Below are positions 15,643-55,450 of a stretch of DNA of 64,000 bases, piece by piece. The notes under the pieces were generated by a model. The model made no database searches. It was not told where the DNA came from and saw only the letters and a program-made list of their open reading frames with translations. Position 1 is the stretch's first letter. Every line of letters begins with the position of its first letter. The translations under genes and the position numbers were made by a program. Source of the stretch: Heptranchias perlo (taxonomy: Eukaryota); contig NC_090348.1 in assembly GCF_035084215.1 (NCBI RefSeq), positions 14,632,001 through 14,696,000 on the forward strand, given 5' to 3'.

Positions 15643-17115
15643 TTAAACGTCAGTCAGCAGTTTGCTCTTATTCACACAATTTTGGTTTGCTACAGTGCAG
15701 TTGCCAGTTCTGAGATTTGCTTCTCTAAAATTATCTATGCTGTTGTTCACGTCTTCCTCGATCTCCATATAGTCCGACTTGCTAATAGTGGAGGAGCTGC
15801 GGCTTCGTAAATCACTGTCCGAAGCAATGTTCGGGCAGCTAACGTGCAGGTACTGAGCCTGCTCCTCCCCTTCGGTCTCCCGGTGGTAGAAGTAGTTGAA
15901 GTTGGAGACGATGACGGGCACGGGCAGGGCGATGGTCAGGACCCCGGCGATGGCACACAAGGATCCCACAATCTTTCCTCCGATGGTGATGGGATGCATG
16001 TCTCCATAACCCACCGTAGTCATGGTGACCACTGCCCACCAGAAAGCTTCTGGGATGCTGGTGAAATAGGACAACCGGTCGTCAGCTTCCGCGAAGAACG
16101 CGGCACTGGAAAACAGAATGACTCCGATAAACAGAAAAAAGATAAGCAGTCCCAGCTCCCTCATACTGGCTTTAAGAGTCTGTCCCAAGATCTGGAGGCC
16201 TTTCGAGTGCCGGGACAACTTGAAAATCCGAAATACTCGAACCAAACGGATAACTCTGAGGATGGCCAGAGAAGTGGTCTGTTCCCCGCTCTTGTTGCCC
16301 TCGGCCTCCTCTGCCAATTCAGTGCCCAGGGTGATGAAATAGGGGATGATCGCCACTATGTCAATGAAATTCATGATGTTCTTGAAGAACTCCGCCTTGC
16401 TGGGACAGGCGAAGAATCTGACTGTCAGTTCGAAGGAGAACCAGATGATGCAGAGTGTCTCCACGATAAAGAAGGGGCCGGTGAGGATGCTGGCTTTGTA
16501 GGTGATGGTGGTGTTCCCGACTTCCATCGTCCGTTCCCTGTCGTCCTTCAGTTCAGGCAGGGTCTCCAGGCAGAAGATGACGATGGAGATTAAAATGACC
16601 ATCACGGAGATGATGGCAATTCCCCTGGCTGGCCCCGAGCTCTCCGGATGCTCGAACAGCAGCCATACCTGGCGCTGGTACTCGTTCTCAGGCAATGGGC
16701 GCTCCTCCTCCCTGATGAACCCTTCGTCCTCCCGGAATTTTTCCATCGCCTCCTCGCCCAGCTCGTAGAATTTAATCTCCTCCGAGAACATCTCCAGCGG
16801 CACATTGACGGGTCTGCGGAGCCGGCCCCCCGACTGGTAATAGTACAGGATGGCATCGAAACTGGGGCGATTCCGGTCGAAGAAATACTCGTTCCGCAAC
16901 GGGTCGAAGTAGCGCATCCTCTTCTTGGGGTTTCCCAGCAGGGTGTGGGGGAATTGGGCCAGGGTCTTGAGCTGGGTCTCGAACCTCAGCCCTGAGATGT
17001 TGATGACCACCCGCTCACAACACTCGTGGTCATCGTGGTCCGGCGGGTAGCTGTCCTGAGGGTGGCCGGGCAAAGCCGAGGCTTCGTCTATGTTGTCGCC
17101 GGCGAGAACCGTCAT
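15643..17115 (-). CDS. KCNA1: Voltage-gated potassium channel Kv1.1 (Shaker-related subfamily A member 1), copy 1, 490 aa
   Basis: Kv1.1-type N-terminus ([26 protein letters not shown]), T1 domain, S4 [20 protein letters not shown] filter, PVPVIV hinge, and Kv1.1-specific C-terminus [14 protein letters not shown]; uninterrupted CDS. Confidence 0.97.
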
Positions 17116-18831: not shown

Positions 18832-20996
18832 CAGAATCAAAGAAAGGTTGTAACACGGAAGGAGGCCACTCGGCCCACCGAGTCCGCGCTGGCTCTGTGC
18901 AACACCAATCCAGCTCGTCCCACTCCCCCGCACTATCCCCATAACCCTGCATTTTTTTCCTTTCAAGTATTTATCCAGTTCCTTTTTGAAGGCCATGATT
19001 GAATCTCCACCACCCCCTCAGGCAGTGCATTCCAGATCCTGACCACACCCTGCCTGGAAAAGTTTGTCCTCATGTCACCTTTGGTTCTTTTGCCAATCAC
19101 CTTAAATCTATGTCCTCTGGTTCTTGACCCTTTCACCAATGGGAACAGTTTCTCTCTATCTACTCTGTCTAGACTCTTCATGATTGTGAATACCTCTATC
19201 AAATCTCCTCGCAACCATCTCTGTTCCATGGAGAACAATCCCAGCTTCTCCAGTTTATCCACGTAACTAAAATCCCTCATCCCTGTAATCATTCTGGTAA
19301 ATCTCTTCTGCACCCTCTCTAAGGCCTTCACATCTTTCCTAAAGTGCAGTGCCCAGGACTGGACACACTACTCCAGTTGTGGCCAAACCAGTGTTTTAGA
19401 AAGGTTCATCATGACTTCCATACTTTTGTACTCTATGCCTCTATTTATAAAGCCCAGGATCCCGTATGCTTTTTTAACCGCTTTCTCGACCTGCCCTACC
19501 ATCTTCAACGATTTGTGCACATAGACCCCCAGATCTCTCTGTTCCTGTACCCCTTTTAGAGTTGTGCTCTCCAGTTTATATTGCCTCTCCTCGTTCTTCC
19601 TACTGAAATGTATCACTTCACATTTTTCTGCGTTAAATTTCATCTGCTACGGTGTCCGCCCATGTCACCAGCCTGTCTATATCCTCTTGAAGTCTATCAC
19701 TATCCTCCTCACTGTTCGCTACACTTCCAAGTTTTGTGTCATCTGCAAATTTTTAAAATTGTGCCCCCTACACCCAAGTCCAAAGTCATTAATATATATC
19801 AAGAAAAGCAGTGGTCTCATCACCGAACCCTGGGGAACACCACTTGTACACCTCCCTCCAGACCAAAAAACAACCTTTCACCACCACTCTCTGTTTCCTG
19901 TCACTTAGCCAATTCTGTATCCATGTTGCTACTGCTCTCTTTATTCCATGGGCCGCAATCTTGATGATAAGCCTACCATGCGGCACTTTATCAAACGCTT
20001 TTTGAAAGTCCATATCAACTGCATTGCCCTCATCTACCCTCTCTGTTAACTCATCAAAAAACTCTATCAGGTCAGTTAAACATGATTTTCCTTTAACAAA
20101 TCCATGCTGGCTTTTCCTAATCAATCCAACTCATCCAAGTGACTGTTAATTCTGTCCCGGATTATCGTTTCTAAAAGTTTCCCCACCACTGAGGTTAAAC
20201 TGACTGATCTATTGTTGCTGGGTTTATCCTTACACCCTTTTTTGAAAAAGGGTGTCGCATTTACAATTCTCCAGTCCTCTGGCACCGCCCCCGTATCTAC
20301 GGATGTTTGGAAGATTATGGCCAGCATCTCCACAATTTCCACTCTTACTTCCCTCAGCAACCTAAAATGCATCCCATCCGAACCGGGTGATTTATCTACT
20401 TTAAGTACAGCTAGCCTTTTTAATACCTCTTCTTTATCAATTTTTAGCCCATCCAGTATCTCAACTACATCTTCCTTGACTGAGACTCTGGCAGCATCTT
20501 CTTCCTTGGTAAAGACAGTTGCAAAGTACTCATTTAGTACCTCAGCCATCCCCTCTGCCTCCATGAGTAGATCTCCTTTATGATCCCTAATCGGCCCCAC
20601 CCCTCCTCTTACTACCCATTTACTGTTTACATGCCTGTAGAAGGCTTTTGGATTCCCCTTATGTTGGCCATCAGTCTATTCTCATACTCTCTCTTTGCCC
20701 CTCTTATTTCCTTTTTCACTTCCCCTCTGAACTTTCTATATTCAGCCTGGTTCTCACTTGTGTTATCAACCTGACATCTGTCATACACCCCTTTTTTCCA
20801 TTTCATCTTACTCACTATCTCTTTTGTCATCCAGGGAGCTCTGGCTTTATTTGCCCTATCTTTCTGCCTCATGGGAATGTGCCTAAACTGTACCCGAACC
20901 ATCTCCTCCTGAAAGGACGCCCTCTGTTCAATTACGGTTTTGCCTGCTAAACTTTGATTCCAATTTACCTGGGCCAGATCTGTTCTCATCCCATTG
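18832..20996 (-). mobile_element. 5'-truncated CR1-clade LINE, specific to unit 1
   Basis: Broken ORF2 pieces (KSQHGFVKGKSCLTDLIEFF..DFQKAFDKVPH; KFNAEKCEVIHF; LERVQKRFTRMI); inserted into cagtta|aaaagaaaatgcgc, which is empty in units 2 and 3. Confidence 0.93.
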
Positions 20997-29244: not shown

Positions 29245-30717
29245 TTAAACATCAGTCAGCAGTTTGCTCTTATTCACACAGTTTTGGTTTGCTACAGTGC
29301 AGTTGCCAGTTCTGAGATTTGCTTCTCTAAAATTATCTATGCTGTTGTTCACGTCTTCCTCGATCTCCATATAGTCCGACTTGCTAATAGTGGAGGAGCT
29401 GCGGCTTCGTAAATCACTGTCCGAAGCAATGTTCGGGCAGCTAACGTGCAGGTACTGAGCCTGCTCCTCCCCTTCGGTCTCCCGGTGGTAGAAGTAGTTG
29501 AAGTTGGAGACGATGACGGGCACGGGCAGGGCGATGGTCAGGACCCCGGCGATGGCACACAAGGATCCCACAATCTTTCCTCCGATGGTGATGGGATGCA
29601 TGTCTCCATAACCCACCGTAGTCATGGTGACCACTGCCCACCAGAAAGCTTCTGGGATGCTGGTGAAATAGGACAACCGGTCGTCAGCTTCCGCGAAGAA
29701 CGCGGCACTGGAAAACAGAATGACTCCGATAAACAGAAAAAAGATAAGCAGTCCCAGCTCCCTCATACTGGCTTTAAGAGTCTGTCCCAAGATCTGGAGG
29801 CCTTTCGAGTGCCGGGACAACTTGAAAATCCGAAATACTCGAACCAAACGGATAACTCTGAGGATGGCCAGAGAAGTGGTCTGTTCCCCGCTCTTGTTGC
29901 CCTCGGCCTCCTCTGCCAATTCAGTGCCCAGGGTGATGAAATAGGGGATGATCGCCACTATGTCAATGAAATTCATGATGTTCTTGAAGAACTCCGCCTT
30001 GCTGGGACAGGCGAAGAATCTGACTGTCAGTTCGAAGGAGAACCAGATGATGCAGAGTGTCTCCACGATAAAGAAGGGGCCGGTGAGGATGCTGGCTTTG
30101 TAGGTGATGGTGGTGTTCCCGACTTCCATCGTCCGTTCCCTGTCGTCCTTCAGTTCAGGCAGGGTCTCCAGGCAGAAGATGACGATGGAGATTAAAATGA
30201 CCATCACGGAGATGATGGCAATTCCCCTGGCTGGCCCCGAGCTCTCCGGATGCTCGAACAGCAGCCATACCTGGCGCTGGTACTCGTTCTCAGGCAATGG
30301 GCGCTCCTCCTCCCTGATGAACCCTTCGTCCTCCCGGAATTTTTCCATCGCCTCCTCGCCCAGCTCGTAGAATTTAATCTCCTCCGAGAACATCTCCAGC
30401 GGCACATTGACGGGTCTGCGGAGCCGGCCCCCCGACTGGTAATAGTACAGGATGGCATCGAAACTGGGGCGATTCCGGTCGAAGAAATACTCGTTCCGCA
30501 ACGGGTCGAAGTAGCGCATCCTCTTCTTGGGGTTTCCCAGCAGGGTGTGGGGGAATTGGGCCAGGGTCTTGAGCTGGGTCTCGAACCTCAGCCCTGAGAT
30601 GTTGATGACCACCCGCTCACAACACTCGTGGTCATCGTGGTCCGGCGGGTAGCTGTCCTGAGGGTGGCCGGGCAAAGCCGAGGCTTCGTCTATGTTGTCG
30701 CCGGCGAGAACCGTCAT
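29245..30717 (-). CDS. KCNA1: Kv1.1 copy 2, 490 aa, protein identical to copy 1
   Basis: ORF translation identical to copy 1; only two synonymous differences seen, both near the C-terminus (GAC/GAT, AAT/AAC). Confidence 0.97.
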
Positions 30718-31172
30718 CCTGCCGGCCGACGGCGTTCAGTGGGGCGATTTGGCTGGGTCCGATTCACTGACTGCTACTCCCCCGCGATCGGACATTCGGA
30801 GGCAGCACTTTGGAGGGGGTGGGGAGGATGGGTGGGGGCTCTAAGGGAGAACGGGTCTAACGGATCACTCTGGGTTTTCTGGCTGATTTAACCATTGTGG
30901 GACTCAGCACTTCAAACGGATCCAAGTGATCTCAGCAGCTCAGCAAATTCCGTGGCGCTTCTACCCCCCTCAGGACCAAAGTGCTGCGGAATACAAAAGG
31001 TTAGCATAAAACAAAACCGAGCTTGACATAAATGGGCAAATGTTGGACCTTATGTGAATGGAGCTCATGCACTGAAGAGTTTTCCAGCAGCCCGCACCTC
31101 GCGTTCTTACAACTTCGCAGAATTGTAAACAATTTTACAACACCAAGTTATAGTCCAGCAATTTTATTTTAA

Positions 31173-31213
31173 ATTCACAAGCTTTCGGAGATTTTCTCCT
31201 TCCTCAGGCAAAC
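31173..31213 (-). ncRNA. Minimal type I hammerhead ribozyme motif (left PLE arm)
   Basis: Minus strand GUUUGC-CUGAGGA-A-GGAG-AAAAU-CUCC-GAAA-GCUU-GUGAAU: conserved core, stem II, palindromic AAGCUU stem III and a 6-bp stem I with G-U pairs. Confidence 0.7.
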
Positions 31214-31838
31214 GTTTCAAGAGCTCCTTGATGCCTACGCATTTATACATATTGAACAATACATGGTGTTTACAGACTGCCCCTGCAACTGCCCGTTGCC
31301 AAGGCAATCACCGTGTTCAGACAGAGAGGTGTCACCTGCAGAACCCCCGAATACACATTCAACAAAAAAACAAACAGGGAAAAAAAACAGAGAAAAAAAA
31401 AACACAGAGAGAGGCAGAAACATCCGGAAGGCAGAGAGAGCCAGCAAATGACCCATTATATTAAAAACAGATAACATTTGTTCGCTGGTGGGGTAACGTG
31501 TAGCGTGACATGAACCCAAGATCCCAGTTGAGGCCGTCCTCATGGGTGCGGAACTTGGCTATCAATTTCTGCTCGACGATTTTGCGTTGTCGTGTGTCTC
31601 GAAGGCCGCCTTGGAGTACGCTTACCCGAAGGTCGGTGGATGAATGTCCATGACTGCTGAAGTGTTCCCCGACTGGGAGGGAACCCTCCTGTTTGGCGAT
31701 TGTTGTGCGGTGTCCGTTCATCCGTTGTCGCAGCGTCTGCATGGTCTCGCCAATGTACCATGCTCTGGGGCATCCTTTCCTGCAACGTATGAGGTAGACA
31801 ACGTTGGCCGAGTCACAGGACTATGAACCACCCACCTG

Positions 31839-32216
31839 GTGCATGGTTCATACTCCTGTGACTCGGCCAACGTTGTCTACCTCATACGTTGCAGGAAAGG
31901 ATGCCCCAGAGCATGGTACATTGGCGAGACCATGCAGACGCTGCGACAACGGATGAACGGACACCGCGCAACAATCGCCAAACAGGAGGGTTCCCTCCCA
32001 GTCGGGGAACACTTCAGCAGTCATGGACATTCATCCACCGACCTTCGGGTAAGCGTACTCCAAGGCGGCCTTCGAGACACACGACAACGCAAAATCGTCG
32101 AGCAGAAATTGATAGCCAAGTTCCGCACCCATGAGGACGGCCTCAACCGGGATCTTGGGTTCATGTCACGCTACACGTTACCCCACCAGCGAAAAATTTA
32201 TCTGTTTTTAATATAA
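31839..32216 (+). pseudogene. Truncated PLE ORF, GIY-YIG endonuclease domain only (mirror copy at 31461-31830 on minus strand)
   Basis: VVYLIRC..C...YIGET motif with downstream R, H, E and GLN residues; no RT domain present. Confidence 0.85.
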
Positions 32217-32458
32217 TGGGTCATTTGCTGGCTCTCTCTGCCTTCCGGATGTTTCTGCCTCTCTCTGTGTTTTTTTTTTCTCTGTTTTTTTTCCCTGTTT
32301 GTTTTTTTGTTGAATGTGTATTCGGGGGTTCTGCAGGTGACACCTCTCTGTCTGAACACGGTGATTGCCTTGGCAACGGGCAGTTGCAGGGGCAGTCTGT
32401 AAACACCATGTATTGTTCAATATGTATAAATGCGTAGGCTTCAAGGAGCTCTTGAAAC

Positions 32459-32499
32459 ATTTGCCTGAGGAAGGAGAAAATCTCCGAAAGCTTGTGAAT
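32459..32499 (+). ncRNA. Minimal type I hammerhead ribozyme motif (right PLE arm)
   Basis: AUUUGC-CUGAGGA(32465-32471)-A-GGAG-AAAAU-CUCC-GAAA(32486-32489)-GCUU-GUGAAU, followed by AATAAA at 32504-32509. Confidence 0.7.
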
Positions 32500-32617
32500 T
32501 TAAAATAAAATTGCTGGACTATAACTTGGTGTTGTAAAATTGTTTACAATTGTCAACCCCAGTCCATCACCGGCATCTCCACATCACATCTTCGCAGAAG
32601 GCAGCGAATGCTTTTCG

Positions 32618-39300: not shown

Positions 39301-42189
39301 GCACGCTTCTCAAGTCACATGCAGATAAACGTTAACCTAAGGAACAATTTCCCCAAAACTAGAAACTCAATTGCTAAAGTAAACATGAGCTGCCAGAAGC
39401 CACGTAGAATTTTATCAAAGCAGTTCTGCAGCATTGGATCATTTATTGCTGTTTATTGAATACAATATTCAAGTCATTTAACACAGGGGAAAGTTTTCTC
39501 CTACCTCCAGGTTTATGTGATGTAGAAGGGTCAGAATAACCAGAGTATGGGTGGATTACATAATCTACATGGAGTTCATCAACAGTTTTGCTAAATTCCT
39601 CCATGTAACTTTCATTTATACTCTCAGTTCAGTTGTATCAATTAATTCAGTCATATATTCTTGGAGTGACTTCATTCTTTGTGAAATCTTTTCCTTTTGC
39701 ATTCTTTAAATTTCAAAGTAAGTACAATTTATAATCAAGTGCCACCATTCCTTTTGGGATCTAATCATGTCTTGATCTATCTGCATCAGTCTGGATTATC
39801 CAACGACGACAAACTGTCTCTTGCAATAAACAAATCAATATCCAGGTAGACCCCTCTGTCCGAAAACAAGCATGATGTTAATTAAAAAATGCATCTCGTG
39901 TTTCGCCAGGTTTTTGGGAAATTGCCATATAGTATTCCAAATATTTTTGTACTCATCTAATGATCTCTGAAAGCTTCTGGCTTTAAGTAGTATGCCGGAG
40001 TAAGATGTGACATATTTCTGCAAAACAATTAAGCTAAGGACAGTGATAGGGTAAACGAGAGAAGTTGGCAACATAGGGAGCATTGAAACTAACTTGCAGA
40101 TGTTGCTCCAGAGAAGAACATAAAGGATATTGCAGAAGAACCTACACTTAATTAGCTGTATATGTGAATTCAGAGTTTCCAGAAAAAGAATCCCCTCAGC
40201 CTGGAATCACACAATGAAACTGTCCTTTTCAACAAGCTAAACTGAGGTAGTCTGCTGAGGAAACGACATTTTCCTTTTTGGTGCATTGCAGATTATGCAG
40301 TTGGGCAGAAAGAGACGAAGTTCTGCGTTTTAAAGTTCAATAGCATAACAATTCATATTGATGTCATTAAAATCTGTTCAATTCGTTAGCAGGTTGTGAA
40401 CATTGATCTCAGTGTAGTTTTTTGTTAAAATCTAATTTGATAGGGATATCAAAGAAGTTCCAAGTAAGATCATTCATCAGGAAGCTCTTGCACAGCTGCA
40501 ATGCCCAGTTGCAAAGGTGTTCTGCATTTCCTCCGGATCTCTCACCAGCTGGTTTAAATCTTGTCACCTTCAGAACTGTGTACAAACATCTGAGCTGCTT
40601 TTTCCACCAACTTTTTTGCCAAGATAACTTTCCGTTGGCCCTCGCAATTAAAGATTTCCCCTCAGACTGTCGGACAGAAATGAGGTGGTACATTTTCACG
40701 GTGTTACAGATTAAGATGATTTCTGTGGACGTCAGGTCATTCAACTTTTCTTTGTACACGGAGGCACTTCCAACAGTCCGGGAGCGTGAGGATTTAAAAG
40801 GCACTAGCAACTAACTACCTCATTTACTGAGTTTCTGCAGTAAAGTAGAGGGAAACCAAAAAAAAAACAAATGTCTTATCTCAATCGGGATAGATTAGGA
40901 AATGAGTTGCAACTTGGAGGCATCATTTATATATATTTTACATTTACATTCTGCTAAAATGCACAAAGGCATGCTTTCTTATCAGTGTGATTAGTTCCAT
41001 TTTAAATTAAATCGTATCATATATAGATATACACATTATCTAACCTGCTTTCATTTGGTTCAGAGATTTCCCAGAAGTAAATGGGCTCTGTTGCATCATA
41101 TTTTGAGCGTTGTTAGGACACGAACCAACTCATTTCCCTGAAATTCTACAGGAACATCATCAGGTCCCTCAATGTTCTACCTTTACTGATTAAATCTCTT
41201 TTGTAACCTGACGTCATGCATAAGTTATAGTGGGTTACATGTTAGCCTTCCCAAAGAGGCCATAATATTAAGTAGTTAAACATGCTATGAAAAGTTACTC
41301 TACCCCATACAAGTTAACATTCAGGCTATGAGTGCTTCGAAGTAATACATTAAATAACAAGCCATTCATTGCACCTTTGGTGAAAGCAAATGAGAACTGA
41401 CTCTCCAGAAATATAAATTAAAACGCAAACTTAATTCCTGTTATTTGAGGTAATGTCCCAGGCATGCCACGACAAAAGTCAATAATAAATATCAAGGCAT
41501 GCTATTATTTATGGGATTTTCTTTTTGAATTACGTTTCTCGCATCAAATTGGGGACAGGGGAATTTTACTTTCAGTCCTGGAAGCACACGAATTGCACTA
41601 TCTGCAAAATTGTAACACTGCAGATGTTTTCAGCAGATACGTTGTTACATCATAAAGTTCAGGCAAAAGCAGCCGCTTGTTTTATTTGATAAAGGACGGT
41701 GGTGTATTTTTCAGAGGAACTAAACCGTCACATCACCTCTCGCAATGAAATACTCATCAGTAGTGCGAATACTGCAGACGCTTGCATGTTTCACCAGAAC
41801 GCAGGAATATGAAGCATTTGGTTATTTGTTTGTTATTTGGATGCACGGTGCAGCTTGCAAAATTGCACCTTAACACATGCATTGGTATTTGTAAATGAAC
41901 TGAGAAAAACGTCCATTCGAGTTTGGTGAACGGGTACAAGTCCGGGTTTATAAAAAGGTACCTACGGATGCTCACGAGAAGGGATCGGGAAATGTTTTCC
42001 CTCGTTACCCAGTTGGAGAAAGAAAGCCATTTAAAAATAAATGAAAATATACCTTCCACGTAATTCTGAAAGCTTATTTTGCTGAGCATAACTGCAATGC
42101 CACAACTCATCAACGAGGTCAACAAAGCAATACATGGGTCAGTAACAGTGTCTGGGAAGCATGACTGCCGTCACTGAGCCCGTGGCTCT

Positions 42190-43662
42190 TTAAACATCAG
42201 TCAGCAGTTTGCTCTTATTCACACAGTTTTGGTTTGCTACAGTGCAGTTGCCAGTTCTGAGATTTGCTTCTCTAAAATTATCTATGCTGTTGTTCACGTC
42301 TTCCTCGATCTCCATATAGTCCGACTTGCTAATAGTGGAGGAGCTGCGGCTTCGTAAATCACTGTCCGAAGCAATGTTCGGGCAGCTAACGTGCAGGTAC
42401 TGAGCCTGCTCCTCCCCTTCGGTCTCCCGGTGGTAGAAGTAGTTGAAGTTGGAGACGATGACGGGCACGGGCAGGGCGATGGTCAGGACCCCGGCGATGG
42501 CACACAAGGATCCCACAATCTTTCCTCCGATGGTGATGGGATGCATGTCTCCATAACCCACCGTAGTCATGGTGACCACTGCCCACCAGAAACCCTCTGG
42601 GATGCTGGTGAAATAGGACGTCCGGTCGTCAGCTTCCGCGAAGAACGCGGCACTGGAAAACAGAATGACTCCGATAAACAGAAAAAAGATAAGCAGTCCC
42701 AGCTCCCTCATACTGGCTTTAAGAGTCTGTCCCAAGATCTGGAGGCCTTTCGAGTGCCGGGACAACTTGAAAATCCGAAATACTCGAACCAAACGGATAA
42801 CTCTGAGGATGGCCAGAGAAGTGGTCTGTTCCCCGCTCTTGTTGCCCTCGGCCTCCTCTGCCAATTCAGTGCCCAGGGTGATGAAATAGGGGATGATCGC
42901 CACTATGTCAATGAAATTCATGATGTTCTTGAAGAACTCCGCCTTGCTGGGACAGGCGAAGAATCTGACTGTCAGTTCGAAGGAGAACCAGATGATGCAG
43001 AGTGTCTCCACGATAAAGAAGGGGCCGGTGAGGATGCTGGCTTTGTAGGTGATGGTGGTGTTCCCGACTTCCATCGTCCGTTCCCTGTCGTCCTTCAGTT
43101 CAGGCAGGGTCTCCAGGCAGAAGATGACGATGGAGATTAAAATGACCATCACGGAGATGATGGCAATTCCCCTGGCTGGCCCCGAGCTCTCCGGATGCTC
43201 GAACAGCAGCCATACCTGGCGCTGGTACTCGTTCTCAGGCAATGGGCGCTCCTCCTCCCTGATGAACCCTTCGTCCTCCCGGAATTTTTCCATCGCCTCC
43301 TCGCCCAGCTCGTAGAATTTAATCTCCTCCGAGAACATCTCCAGCGGCACATTGACGGGTCTGCGGAGCCGGCCCCCCGACTGGTAATAGTACAGGATGG
43401 CATCGAAACTGGGGCGATTCCGGTCGAAGAAATACTCGTTCCGCAACGGGTCGAAGTAGCGCATCCTCTTCTTGGGGTTTCCCAGCAGGGTGTGGGGGAA
43501 TTGGGCCAGGGTCTTGAGCTGGGTCTCGAACCTCAGCCCTGAGATGTTGATGACCACCCGCTCACAACACTCGTGGTCATCGTGGTCCGGCGGGTAGCTG
43601 TCCTGAGGGTGGCCGGGCAAAGCCGAGGCTTCGTCTATGTTGTCGCCGGCGAGAACCGTCAT
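42190..43662 (-). CDS. KCNA1: Kv1.1 copy 3, 490 aa, differing by L348T and A357G
   Basis: Translation as copies 1/2 except [18 protein letters not shown] versus [18 protein letters not shown]. Confidence 0.97.
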
Positions 43663-44085
43663 CCTGCCGGCCGACGGCGTTCAGTGGGGCGATTTGGCTG
43701 GGTCCGATTCACTGACTGCTACTCCCCCGCGATCGGACATTCGGAGGCAGCACTTTGGAGGGGGTGGGGAGGATGGGTGGGGGCTCTAAGGGAGAACGGG
43801 TCTAACGGATCACTCTGGGTTTTCTGGCTGATTTAACCATTGTGGGACTCAGCACTTCAAACGGATCCAAGTGATCTCAGCAGCTCAGCAAATTCCGTGG
43901 CGCTTCTACCCCCCTCAGGACCAAAGTGCTGCGGAATACAAAAGGTTAGCATAAAACAAAACCGAGCTTGACATAAATGGGCAAATGTTGGACCCTATGT
44001 GAATGGAGCTCATGCACTGAAGAGTTTTCCAGCAGCCCGCACCTCGCGTTCTTACATCTTCGCAGAAGGCAGCGAATGCTTTTCG

Positions 44086-48504: not shown

Positions 48505-51160
48505 ACATAAGAAGATACTACATAAGAAATTGGAGCAGGAGTAGGCCATATGGCCCCTACTCCTGCTTTATCATTCAAGAAGATCATGGCTGATCTTCAA
48601 CCTCAACTCAACTTTCCCGCCCTATCCCCACATCCCCTGATTCTCTTCGTGTCCAAATATCCATCGATCTCAGTCTTGAATATACTCAATGACTGAGCAT
48701 TCACAGCCCTCTGGGGTAGAGAATTCCAAAGATTCACAACCCTCTGAGTGAAGAAATCTTTCCTCATCTCAGCCTTAAATTGCCAATCCCTTATCTTGAG
48801 ACTGTGACCCGTAGGGCTAGACACTCCAGCCAGGGGAAACAGCCTCTCAGCATCTACCCGGTCAAGCCCTCTAAGAATTTTATACATTTCAATGAGGTCA
48901 CCTCTCATTCTTCTAACTCCAGACAATATAGGCCCATTGTACTCAATCCCTCCTCGTAGGACAGCCCTCTCATTCCAGGAATCAATCTAGTGAACCTTTG
49001 TTGCACCGTCTCTAAGGCAAGTGTATCCTTCCTTACGTAAGGAGATCAAAACTATACACTACTCCAGGTGTGGCCTCACCAGAGCCCTATATAATTGCAG
49101 GAAGTCTTTACTCTTATACTCCAGCCCCCTTGCAATAAAGGCTAACATATCATTTGTTTTCCTAATTGCTTGCTGTACCTGCATGTTAACTTTCTGTGAT
49201 TCATGTACAAGGACACTCAAAACCCTTCTCACTACCCACATTTCTTAGTCTCTCACCTTTTAAAAAATATTCTGCTTTTCTGTTCTTTCTACCAAAGTGG
49301 ATAATTTCACATTTCGCCACATTATACTCCATCTGCCATCTTCTCACCCACTCTCTTAACCTGTCCATATCCCTTTGCAGTCTCTTGGCATCCACCTCAC
49401 AGCTTACTTTCCCACCTAGCTTTGTATCATCAGCAAACGTGGATACATTACACTCGGTCCCTTCATCTAAGTCATTAAACTATATTGTAAACAGCTGAGG
49501 CCCAAACACTGATCCTTGCGGCATCCCACTAATTACAACCTGCCAACCCAAAAATGACCCGTTTATTCCTACTCTGTGTTTTATTTAACCAATCCTCAAT
49601 CCATGTTAATATATTACCCCCTTTTCGCATCCATTAACCAATCCTTAATCCATGTTAATATATTACCTCCAATTCACATCCATTAACCAATCCTTAATCC
49701 ATGTTGATATATTACCCCCAATCTCATGAGCCCTAATCATTTGTAACAATTATTTATGTATCGATTACCTTTTGAAAATCCAAATATACTACATTCACTA
49801 GTTCCCCCTTATCCACTCTGCTAGTTACACCCTCAAAAAAATTCTAATAGAGTCATCTAACAAAATTTCCCTTTCAGAAAACCATATTGTCTCTGCCTAG
49901 TCATATTATGATTTTCTAAGTGCCCTGGTACTATGCCCTGAATAATAGATTCTAGCATTTTCCCTACTACTGATGTCAGGCTAACTGGCCTAAAGTTCCC
50001 TATTTTCTCTCGCCCTCCTTTCTTGAATAGCAGAGTTACATTTGCTACCTTCCAATCCACAGGGACCATTCTAAAATCTAGGGAATTCTGGAAGATCAAA
50101 ACCAATGCATCCACTATCTCTGCAGCCACCTTAGGATGTAGGCCATCAGGTCCAGGGGATTTGTCAGCTTTTAGTCCCATTAATTTCTCCAGTACTTTTT
50201 CTTTAGTAATCTTTAAGTTCCTCACTCTCATTAGACTGTTGGTTCCCCACTATTACTGTTGTTTTTTTTTGTTGTCTTCTGTTAAGACAGATACAAAATA
50301 TTTGTTTAACATCTCTGCCATTTCCTTATTCCCCATTATTTTTTCTCCTGTCTCTGCCTCTAAGGAACACACGTTTACTTTCGCTAATCTCTTCCTTTTT
50401 ACATACTTGTAGAAGCTCTTATGATCTGTTTTTATATTTCTTGCTAATTTACTCATTCAATTTTCTCCCTCTATCAAATTCTTAGTCATCCTTTGCTGAT
50501 TTCGAAAACCCTTCCAATCCTCAGGCATACTACTCTTTTTGGCAACATTGTAAGCATCTTTTTTTAATCTAATACTATCCTTAACTTCTCGAGTTAGCCA
50601 TAGTTGGATCATTTTCCCTGTGGAGTTTTATTCCTCAAGGGACTATGTATTCTTTGAGAATTATGAATTTTAAAAAAAAGTTCACCATTGCTTATCTACC
50701 ATCATATCTTTTAATCTAATTTCCCAATCTATCTTAGCCAACTTGCCCCTCATACCTATGTAATTGACTTTGTTTAAAATTAAGCCCCTAGTTTTGGACT
50801 TAACATCATCATTCTTAAATTCAATATGAAATTCTATCATATTATGATCACTCTACCCAGAAGGATCCTTAACTATAAGATTACTAATTAACCCTATGTC
50901 ATTACACAATACTAGATCTAAAATAGTCTGTTCCCTCGTTGGTGCCTCCATATATTGTTCTAGAAAACTGTCTCGAATGCATTCCATGAACTCGTCATTC
51001 AAACTGTTTTTGCTAATTTGGTTTGCCCACTCTATATGAAGGTTAAAGGCCCCACGATTATTGCATTACCCTTGTTACATGCTCCTCTAGTTTCCTGATT
51101 TATACTCTGTCCAACATTATAACTGTTGCTAGGGGGCCTATAAACTACTCTCACCAGTGT
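48505..51160 (-). mobile_element. Degenerate CR1-clade LINE
   Basis: 3' end cataagaaattggagcaggagtaggcc; ORF2 fragments (KSPGPDGLHP, WQMEYNVAKCEIIHFG, RRMRGDLIEMYK). Confidence 0.9.
49585..49720. repeat. 49-bp tandem triplication inside the CR1
   Basis: ttaaccaatcct(c/t)aatccatgtt(a/g)atatattacc at 49585, 49634 and 49683. Confidence 0.85.
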
Positions 51161-51164
51161 TTCC

Positions 51165-52650
51165 ACTTTCCAGCACTTGGTCCGTAGCCTTGTAGATCAC
51201 AGCACTTCAGATGCACATCCAGATACTTCTTAAATGAGTTGAGAGTTTCTGCCTCTACCACCCTTTCAGGCAGTGAGTTCCAGAACCCGGCCACCCTTTG
51301 GGTGAAAAAAATCTTTTCTCACTCCCCTCTAATTCTTCTACCAATCACTTTAAATCTATGCCCTTTGGTTATTGACCTCTCTGCTAAGGGAAATAGGTCC
51401 TTCCTATCCACACTATCTATGCCCATCATAATTTTGTACACCTCAATTAAATCACCCCTCAGCCTTCTCTGTTCCAAAGAAAACAACCCCAGCCTATCCA
51501 ATCTTTCCTCATAGCTAAAATTCTCCAGTCCTGGCAACATCCTCGTAAATCTCCTCTGTACTCTCTCTAGTTCAATTACATTCTTCCTGCAATGTGGTGA
51601 CCAGAACTTTACACAGTACTCAAGCTGAGGCCTAACCAGTGCTTTATACAGTTCCAGCATAACCTCCCTGCTCTTATGTTCTATGCCTCGGCTAATAAAG
51701 GAAAGTATCCCATGTGCCTTCTTAAGCCCTTTATCTATCTGTCCTGCTACCTTCAGGGATCTGTGGACATGCACTCCAAGGTCCCTTACTTCCTCTACAT
51801 TTTTTAGTATCCTCCCATCTGTTGTATATTCCCTTGCCTTGTTTGCCCTCCCCAAATGCATTAACTCAAACTTATCCAGATTGAATTCCATTTGCCACTT
51901 TTCTGCCCATCTGACCAGTCCATTGATATCTTCCTGCAATCTACAGCTTTCCTCCACACTATCAACCACACAGCCAATTTTTGTATCATCTGCAAACTTC
52001 TTAATCATGCCCCCTATATTTAAGTCCAAATCATTAATATATTTCACAAAAAGCAAAGGACCTCATACTGAGCCCTGTGGAACCCCACTGGAAACAGCCT
52101 TCCAGTCACAAAAACATCCATCAACCATTACCCTTTGCTTCCTGCCACTGAGCCAATTTTGGATCCAACTTGCCACTCTCCCTTGGATCCCATGGGCTTG
52201 TATTTTTTTGACCAGTCTGCCAAATGGGACCTTGTCAAAAGCCTTGCTAAAATCCATGTAGACTACATCAAATTACCCTCATCGACCCTCCCCGTTACCT
52301 CCTCAAAAAATTCAATCAAGTTAGTCAGACACAACCTTCCCTTAACAAATCCATGCTGACTGTCCTTGATTACTCTGTGTCTTTCTAAGTGACGGTTTAT
52401 CTTGTCCCTCAGAATTGATTCCAATAATTTGCCCAGCACAGAGGTTAGACTGACTGGCCATAATTACTTGGTCTATCCCTCGCTCCCTTTTTACACAATG
52501 GTACAACATTAGCAGTCCTCCAATCTTCCGACACCACAGCTGTATCCAGTGAGGATTGGAAAATGATGCTATTTCGTCCCTTGCTTCTTTTAACAGCCTG
52601 GGATACATTTCATCCAGCCTGATGATTCATCTACTTTCAAAGATGCTAAT
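51165..52650 (-). mobile_element. Second CR1-clade LINE fragment (RT domain)
   Basis: DFSKAFDKVP, SGVPQGSV, YINDL..KFADDTK, LERVQRRFTRML in ORFs 51319-52257. Confidence 0.92.
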
Positions 52651-53977: not shown

Positions 53978-55450
53978 TCATACAATCATAGAATGGTTAC
54001 AGCACAGGAGGCCGCCTATTGGCCCATCGAGCCTTTGCCGGCTCTTCGTAAGAGCAATCCAGTTAGCCCCATTTGCCTGCTCTTTCCCTGTAGCCCTGCC
54101 ATTTTTTTTCCTTCACATATTTATCCAATTCCTTTTTTAAAGCTATGATTGAATCTGCTTCCACCACCCTTTCAGGCAGCACATTCCAGATCATAACTAC
54201 TCGCTGTGTAAAAATTTTTTCCTCACATCGCATTTGGTTCTTTTGCCAATCACCTTAAATCTGTGTCCTCTGGTTCTCGATCCGCCAATGGGAACAGTTT
54301 CTCTTTATTTACTTTATCTAAACCAGTCATGATTTTTGAACACTTAGAAGTAAGAAACATAAGAAATAGGAGCAGGAGTAGGCCATCAGCCCCTCGAGCC
54401 TGCTCCGCCATTCAATAAGATCATGGCTGATCTGATCCTAACCTCAAATCTAAATTCATGTCTAAATTCATGTCCAATTTCCTGCCCGCTCCCCGTAACC
54501 CCTAATTCCCTTTACTTCTAGGAAACTGTCTATTTCTGTTTGAATTTATTTAATGATGTAGCTTCCACAGCTTCCTGGGGCAGCAAATTCCACAGACCTA
54601 CCACCCTGAGTGAAGAAGTTTCTCCTCATCTCAGTTTTGAAAGAGCAGCCCCTTATTCTAAGATTATGCCCCCTCGTTCTAGTTTCACCCATCCTTGGGA
54701 ACATCCTTACCACATCCACCCGATCAAGCCCCTTCACAATCTTATATGTTTCAATAAGATCGCCTCTCATTCTTCTGAACTCCAATGAGTAGAGTCCCAA
54801 TCTACTCAACCTCTCCTCATATGTCCGCCCCCTCATCCCCGGGATTAACCGAGTGAACCTTCTTTGTACTGCCTCGAGAGCAAGTATGTCTTTTCTTAAG
54901 TGTGGACACCAAAACTGTATGCAGTATTCCAGGTGCGGTCTCACCAATACCTTATATAACTGCAGCAATACCTCCCTGTTTTTATATTCTATCCCCCTAG
55001 CAATAAACGCCTTCTTGATCACCTGCTGCACCTGCATACTAACTTTTTGATTTTCTTGCACTAGGACCCCCAGATCCCTTTGTACTGCAGTACTTTCCAG
55101 TTTCTCGCCATTAAGATAATAACTTGCTCTCCGATTTTTCCTGCCAAAGTGCATAACCTCACATTTTCCAATATTGTATTGCACCTGCCAAATCTCCGCC
55201 CACTCACCCAGCCTGTCTATATCCCCTTGATATCAAATCTCCTCTCAACCATCTCTGCCCTAAGAACAACCCCAGCTTCTCCAGTCTACCCATGTAACTG
55301 AAGTCCCTCGTCCCTGGAACCATTCTAGTAAATCTTTTCTGCACCCTATCTAAGGCCTTCATGACCTTCCTAAAGTGCGGTGCCCAGAATTGGACACAAT
55401 ACTCCAGTTGTGGCTGAACCAGTGCTTTATAAAGGTTCAACATAACTTCC
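53978..55450 (-). mobile_element. CR1 3' fragment interrupted by a younger CR1 (~54344-55229)
   Basis: Outer element breaks at gatttttgaacac and resumes at atatcaaatctcctctcaacc; inner element has its own 3' end gaaacataagaaataggagcagg and ORF 54546-55184. Confidence 0.85.

Follow-up and report, generated by a model that had tools for sequence, protein, structure and literature searches.

Three tandem Kv1.1 (KCNA1) genes in Heptranchias perlo with a derived outer pore and a short divergent patch in one copy

The window analyzed here, a stretch of 64,000 nucleotides from Heptranchias perlo, contains three near-identical KCNA1 (Kv1.1) genes, all intronless, 490 codons long and situated on the minus strand, with spacings of 13.6 and 12.9 kb (Table 1). 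The locus is real and unusual: all three copies have a derived outer pore, and copy 3 is further set apart by four bases within 29 bp. The reading that we prefer, at a little short of an even chance, is that the three genes have been homogenised by repeated gene conversion, and that selection on the outer pore mouth has kept the patch in copy 3 distinct.

Table 1. Coordinates of the features discussed in the text, given as positions in the window.
Feature	Position	Strand	Description
KCNA1 (Kv1.1) copy 1	15643..17115	-	intronless, 490 aa, L348/A357; 94% to KCNA1 of other sharks
KCNA1 copy 2	29245..30717	-	same protein as copy 1
KCNA1 copy 3	42190..43662	-	T348/G357
Patch	42593..42621	-	four copy-3-specific bases; codons 348-357, turret and pore helix start
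Codon 347	42622..42624	-	R in all copies; P or Q in other cartilaginous fish; Kv1.1 A352
Codon 374	42541..42543	-	H in all copies; Y in 17/17 other chondrichthyan KCNA1; Kv1.1 Y379
Inferred conversion tract	42424..42606	-	codons 353-413 (pore helix, filter, S6); same in all copies
Tract homogenised among all three copies	41810..43773 (copy 3 coordinates)	.	CDS, about 380 bp 3' and 110 bp 5'
Longer tract homogenised, copies 2 and 3	40358..44067	.	8/3,710 differ, against 191/2,345 beyond
Private 1.43-kb palindromic insertion, young dispersed repeat	31121..32551	.	about 400 bp upstream of the copy 2 start codon; none in copies 1 and 3

Locus and gene identity

The triplicated genes are orthologues of KCNA1 by similarity as well as by gene order. 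They are 92-95% identical to elasmobranch KCNA1, 85-86% to mammalian KCNA1 and about 81% to rat Kv1.2, and on the contig they are flanked by a KCNA6-position gene and KCNA5. These flanking names were given from position and similarity, the upstream gene being called KCNA6 by position only; records label it 'member 3-like' or 'member 1-like'. The order KCNA6-KCNA1-KCNA5 was described earlier for the vertebrate cluster in passages of PMC1978502, and the shark contig has the same order, strand and intronless genes. It differs from the cluster described there in the triplication of KCNA1 and in a second, inverted copy of the KCNA6-position gene at a distance of 180 kb (G000:C27:14987089-14988489 on the plus strand and 14806362-14807762 on the minus strand); the words 'conversion' and 'concerted' are absent from the main text of that paper. 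The two KCNA6-position duplicates share a 5.3-kb tract at 98% identity, with more distant flanks at 77-97%.

Alignment to mouse Kv1.1 gives an offset of +5, i.e. 347 corresponds to A352, 348 to E353, 350 to H355, 356 to D361, 357 to A362 and 374 to Y379, and D361 is what we take to be the equivalent of Shaker D431. The initial annotation had placed residue 348 at E353 and residue 357 next to D361, and the alignment agrees with this.

The insertion upstream of copy 2 is a near-perfect palindrome edged by a short near-duplication of its target site, and could affect copy 2 expression. One arm has 98-99% identity to at least 10 other places, among the 40 scored of 1,394 candidates. Repeats that are old and diverged and whose open frames resemble reverse transcriptase, probably LINE fragments, are found at 18835-20319, 48520-49377, 51253-52568 and 53984-55450.

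Gene conversion among the three copies

Between copies, the coding regions diverge by 0.15-0.36%, against 8-9% in the flanks. Outside the converted tracts the pairwise values are 8.1% (191/2,345), 8.7% (327/3,739) and 9.3% (348/3,762). Within the 1,964 bp that are homogenised among all three genes, copy 1 has 3 differences to copy 2 and 7 to copy 3. The tract common to copies 2 and 3 measures 3.7 kb, which is shorter than the nearly identical surroundings of about 5 kb that had been proposed at the outset. Silent sites are homogenised, the tract edges are sharp, and the likeness goes beyond the age of the duplication, as is characteristic of concerted evolution. Since silent sites are homogenised as well, purifying selection alone is insufficient as an explanation, and the near-identical coding regions within diverged flanks are likely to result from repeated gene conversion. 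The initial annotation's view of ongoing conversion is thereby borne out. The private insertion of copy 2 moreover identifies the copies as distinct loci.

The patch in copy 3

In the single assembled haplotype, copies 2 and 3 differ in 4 of 1,473 coding bases, and all four are found inside the 29 bp, exactly as claimed beforehand. Bases 42621 and 42620 turn TTG in copy 2 into ACG in copy 3 (L348T), base 42593 turns GCT into GGT (A357G), and base 42595 (GAA in copy 2, GAG in copy 3) is silent at E356. Copy 1, with the protein of copy 2, differs from both other copies at two silent sites, in codons 479 and 489; the claim that the patch holds the only coding differences among copies consequently stands for amino acids and fails for bases.

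Position 357 is A, S or G in 276, 32 and 111, respectively, of 419 Kv1 pore segments. Glycine occurs here in only one of 264 segments outside KCNA10 and is the usual state within KCNA10, so G at 357 is tolerated. At codon 348, 4-5 base changes are needed from any D or E codon to yield both ACG and TTG. Going by the letters, R347-T348 could also have arisen from a P-D codon pair through a one-base slip that was later compensated. In one window the patch seemed to alter mRNA folding around the codon that corresponds to the Kv1.1 I400V editing site; this was rejected, as the effect was unstable over 24 settings of window, span and temperature, and a structure prediction from a 20-sequence alignment was set aside (mean pLDDT 33).

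As a single haplotype underlies the observation, the copy 3 bases might segregate as an allele, stem from a mosaic of haplotypes or be an error of assembly, and so not be a fixed difference between paralogues. We regard this as improbable, since four substitutions that keep the frame and come with no indel do not look like typical long-read errors, one of them equals the natural codon of a neighboring gene, and the copies occupy separate loci, as their diverged flanks and the private insertion show. Four DNA runs from one sample contained 0.94-0.95 of the sampled words, a figure that does not resolve the patch itself; runs from a second organism contained about 0.3 and carry no weight as evidence, and no RNA run was among those listed. 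The derived pore, being common to all three copies, stands regardless of the status of the patch.

A derived outer pore common to all copies

The pore was compared with that of 17 other chondrichthyan KCNA1 (16 elasmobranch and one chimaera; a 17-member cluster supplied the 15 members that were listed, less one partial sequence). Against these, all three copies are derived at positions 339, 347, 348, 350, 356, 364 and 374. Among the shared outer-pore states are R347, L/T348, E356 and H374, equivalent to Kv1.1 352, 353, 361 and 379. The net turret charge is -3 in the shark copies versus -5 in 17/17 of the comparison set, and the acid at 348, lost in both shark variants, is retained in all 17. 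Pore-loop residues that are private among chondrichthyan KCNA1 number 7-8 here, 0 for the 16 elasmobranchs and 2 for the chimaera, a count that is inflated here as the set holds no close relative of this lineage. As all copies carry the derived pore, the patch divides two derived versions. Outside the pore, the extracellular loops S1-S2 and S3-S4 (codons 188-282) have also changed in the same way in all copies, for example by N209S, D213G and A280T at sites that are invariant across 18 other sequences; the C-terminal tail has hardly changed at all.

Part of this pore resembles the KCNA6-position gene. Codons 353-413 differ from it in 4/183 nt, against 48/177 for codons 286-344. Codons 382-413 are also near KCNA5 (2/96 differ), with the unlinked KCNA4, KCNA7 and KCNA10 differing at 14-15/96. 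In other elasmobranchs, T364, H374 and A357 are common in the KCNA6-position gene, where KCNA1 has S, Y and S, so that the direction was likely from KCNA6 to KCNA1, with the KCNA6-position gene as the likely donor of H374. Should Hexanchiformes be sister to the remaining elasmobranchs, one of two results given in 10.64898/2026.02.13.705779, then A357 would simply be ancestral; under this topology 10/21 changes are located in codons 339-378. The KCNA6-position genes of whale and zebra shark (P0241 and P0138) have KCNA1-like pore residues, which suggests conversion in the reverse direction. Since exchange between KCNA1 and KCNA6 recurs in other sharks, it is not necessarily adaptive. Scyliorhinus torazame has two KCNA10-like proteins (P0266 and P0398) on contigs of equal length, suggesting KCNA duplications in other sharks too.

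The patch straddles the 5' edge of the KCNA6-like tract at codon 353, and its silent GAG at codon 356 matches the codon of one KCNA6-position copy; this base may therefore have been imported, rather than being an old site that hitch-hiked. The same match is what could be cited for an origin of the whole patch in one ectopic conversion out of another Kv1 paralogue. Such an origin is largely refuted, barring a donor that was lost or is missing from the assembly, and in our estimate extremely improbable: compared with the seven other Kv1 genes one by one, codons 347-357 of copy 3 have 8-13 mismatches in 33 nt, and the 36-nt patch pattern, with up to 2 mismatches allowed, has a single genomic occurrence. 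An exact paralogue match had been named in the initial annotation as grounds for abandoning its proposal, and in this genome no Kv1 paralogue qualifies as donor of the whole patch. The G at 357 to which it had pointed in Kv1.8 is indeed usual in KCNA10 generally, but KCNA10 in this genome has A.

Chance, selection and rates

A clustering test had been proposed along with the selection claim. Under uniform placement, the probability that four of eight differences lie within 29 bp is 9e-5, which rises to 0.006 when they are counted as three events and to 0.21 as two. This test was dropped, uniform placement being the wrong null under conversion. Two other nulls were used, each with 12 settings. 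In a steady-state simulation of conversion among three copies, with assumed tract lengths, constraint and multi-base mutation rates, neutral pairs with 4-9 differences had four of them within 29 bp in 0.1-1.6% of cases and at least three replacements in at most 0.6%, and such a cluster was inside the turret in 0 of about 1,100-2,200 pairs per setting. In the leftover-island null, where an old island is spared at random by a single recent conversion round, the four differences cluster in 8-83%, so that clustering alone is weak evidence under conversion. The full pattern, i.e. at least three replacements out of four and all in the turret, occurs in 0.2-2.9% in this post hoc test; with a relaxed turret, at least three replacements are obtained in 17-30%.

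These figures bear directly on a neutral origin, in which long recent conversions spared 29 bp by chance, or repair was error-prone at the edge of the KCNA6 tract, the changes then surviving because no part of the channel is more tolerant than the turret and constraint is relaxed by the extra copies. Repair at conversion tracts is mutagenic, and the patch spans just such an edge, with a GAG codon that one KCNA6-position copy shares. The ready clustering of leftover islands, the replacements expected in a relaxed turret and the two-event count are all as a neutral origin would have it, and so is the ratio of replacement to silent differences in the KCNA6-position pair (see below). It fits less well with the turret location of three replacements out of four, given how seldom the null yields it, or with codon 348 having been hit at least four times where all 17 other sequences kept the acid. 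On balance, we consider a neutral leftover somewhat unlikely.

Selection on the patch comes close to even probability. The idea of an island kept by selection, as first put forward, gains from nulls that make the full pattern uncommon and loses from a turret that is tolerant in all lineages and a site chosen afterwards. Parallel outer-pore changes in the KCNA6-position pair and KCNA10 were counted for selection; counted against it were the presence of one linked silent site only and the position of the patch at the edge of the putatively KCNA6-derived tract.

Branch comparisons gave no outer-pore excess: the outer-pore share of KCNA1 change is 8/23 here versus 15/46 on other elasmobranch branches (p = 0.53), and none was found in the KCNA6-position gene, KCNA10 or KCNA7 (p = 0.28, 0.33 and 0.88, respectively). 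Compared with KCNA7, KCNA1 has changed more on this branch, both overall (21:33 vs 20:72, p = 0.022) and in the pore (8:12 vs 1:12, p = 0.047). The excess over the rate of the KCNA6-position gene is not significant (p = 0.12-0.14), nor is any of 16 relative-rate tests with the chimaera as outgroup.

Under the preferred reading of conversion combined with selection, an old duplication of Kv1.1 would have come first, followed by conversion from the KCNA6-position gene that imported T364 and H374. Point changes would then have taken away the acidic residue of codon 348 and introduced R347, with conversion carrying both to every copy. Codon 348 would have continued to change, with at least four base changes leading from D/E to ACG and TTG, and the two versions would now resist homogenisation.

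Other Kv1 genes in the genome

The KCNA6-position pair differs in 11 coding bases, nine replacement and two silent, and three of the eight differing residues are in the turret. This 9:2 ratio fits neutrality (p = 0.51) and does not fit a dN/dS of 0.1 (p = 1e-4). In KCNA10 the D361 site is occupied by H and the M378 site by V, each seen in one of 419 segments. This gene (G000:C1166:154331-155512) also has a genomic V at the equivalent of the Kv1.1 I400V editing site, where 14/14 others have I. A KCNA2-like gene (G000:C1166:26594-28182) is broken by an in-frame stop and frameshifts, and its codons 286-352, from S4 to the pore, are identical in DNA to KCNA10; its S3-S4 linker contains a 24-bp unit in about six repeats. 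KCNA3 was not found in protein searches of the assembly. A distance of 26 kb separates the KCNA2-like gene from the start of its contig, which is small and unplaced, and KCNA3 may therefore be missing from the assembly. The pore of KCNA7 is ordinary. These comparisons indicate that in sharks the DNA coding for the pore is exchanged among KCNA1, KCNA6 and KCNA5, as it also is between KCNA2 and KCNA10.

The state of these genes touches on the triplication itself. Extra Kv1.1 might offset a loss of Kv1.2, and perhaps Kv1.3, with the pore drifting towards theirs; this would account for the triplication only and is compatible with the other readings. The broken KCNA2-like gene and the KCNA3 search result are in line with it, as are R347, a Kv1.2 state, and T348, T364 and H374, which are Kv1.3 states. 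With KCNA3 perhaps absent from the assembly only, given how near the start of a small contig the KCNA2-like gene is, we think such compensation unlikely. A wider proposition is that in this lineage the outer mouth was remodelled throughout the Kv1 set against a peptide blocker, which would link the imported pore, the three-fold KCNA1, the two turret versions and the alterations of KCNA6 and KCNA10 at the same sites; we find this decidedly doubtful.

Pore blockers and physiology

Passages of several papers describe peptide block of mammalian Kv1.1 as governed by residues 352, 353 and 379 (PMC3721222, PMC11355921, PMC13030696, PMC3820677). According to these passages, the triple mutant A352P/E353S/Y379H shifts the IC50 of the anemone peptide APEKTx1 from 0.9 nM to 10.8 uM (PMC3721222), Y379H lowers the affinity of BgK (PMC11355921), and in simulations ShK touches E353, D361 and Y379 (PMC3820677). 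For a Kunitz peptide, the effect of E353T is modest (IC50 3.06 uM vs about 1 uM), and residue 379 outweighs the turret at least 90-fold (PMC13030696). The toxin-contact location claimed for the patch stands for 348, which is at a recognised blocker position; 357 is missing among the contacts named in these passages.

The three positions of the engineered mutant are altered in all shark copies, with Y379H as the identical substitution. The first two positions are R and L/T in the shark, with P-D/E as the ancestral state, so the effect size is not transferable. By analogy, all copies are predicted to be less sensitive than the Kv1.1 of other sharks to basic pore-blocking peptides. Both variant proteins are predicted to conduct; their N-terminal assembly domains are identical, and they would accordingly be predicted to co-assemble if co-expressed. 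Since residue 374 is the same in every copy, the two variants are predicted to differ only modestly.

The initial annotation had likened the copies to the toxin-resistant and toxin-sensitive ATP1A1 duplicates (R/S) of Leptodactylus. According to passages of 10.1101/2020.08.04.234435, those are likewise tandem duplicates in the same orientation under non-allelic gene conversion, with residual differences at an extracellular toxin-contact region and a closely linked silent site. In Leptodactylus, however, there is an ancestral sensitive copy, 12 substitutions are common to five species, and a dietary toxin and assays are at hand, whereas the shark has three copies that are all derived, two differing residues in one haplotype and a third-party donor gene, all read from sequence alone. 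For a resistant/sensitive pair speak the tandem arrangement in one orientation, the concerted evolution and a difference at the E353 position, where E353T cut Kunitz-peptide affinity in a passage of PMC13030696. Nevertheless, neither variant is ancestral: all copies are derived at 347, 348, 356 and 374, and both variants are without the acid at 348 and have H374. The dominant residue in the same passage is 379, which corresponds to the invariant 374. The recorded diet (bony fish, squid and elasmobranchs, in passages of one diet study, PMC8471685, with parasites and minor prey outside its scope) offers no evident toxin source. With no copy retaining the ancestral pore, this is not a pair of the Leptodactylus type, and a resistant/sensitive pair seems very improbable. 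Red/green opsin and RHD/RHCE, as cited in the available passages of 10.1101/2020.08.04.234435, similarly have a short divergent patch within converted duplicates. Those cases have population support, and the opsins functional support as well, while the shark patch is known from one haplotype.

A physiological role is also to be considered. Residue 379 influences TEA block and slow inactivation. Furthermore, Kv1.1 is expressed in electroreceptor tissue of skate and catshark, in passages of 10.1101/274449 and PMC11979771, and together these make physiological tuning at least as likely as a toxin. If a property was selected, it was somewhat more probably gating or inactivation at the outer mouth, with block by an external peptide at rather less than even probability; a toxin as the cause of the patch is quite unlikely.

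Implications for the Kv1 family

Kv1.1, which ranks with the most conserved proteins that cartilaginous fish have, is here amplified and altered at the three classical peptide-blocker positions. No earlier description of a shark with amplified KCNA1 or with pore conversion was found among listings and abstracts of the open-access literature. If the selection reading is true, the locus would be a natural experiment on Kv1 outer-pore function, in which conversion between ancient paralogues supplies an adaptive residue. If instead the whole Kv1 set was rebuilt, it would represent target-site resistance that a family of vertebrate potassium channels had acquired by way of paralogue exchange. Even if the patch is neutral, exchange of pores between paralogues would mislead gene trees and gene names, as with the labels of the KCNA6-position genes.
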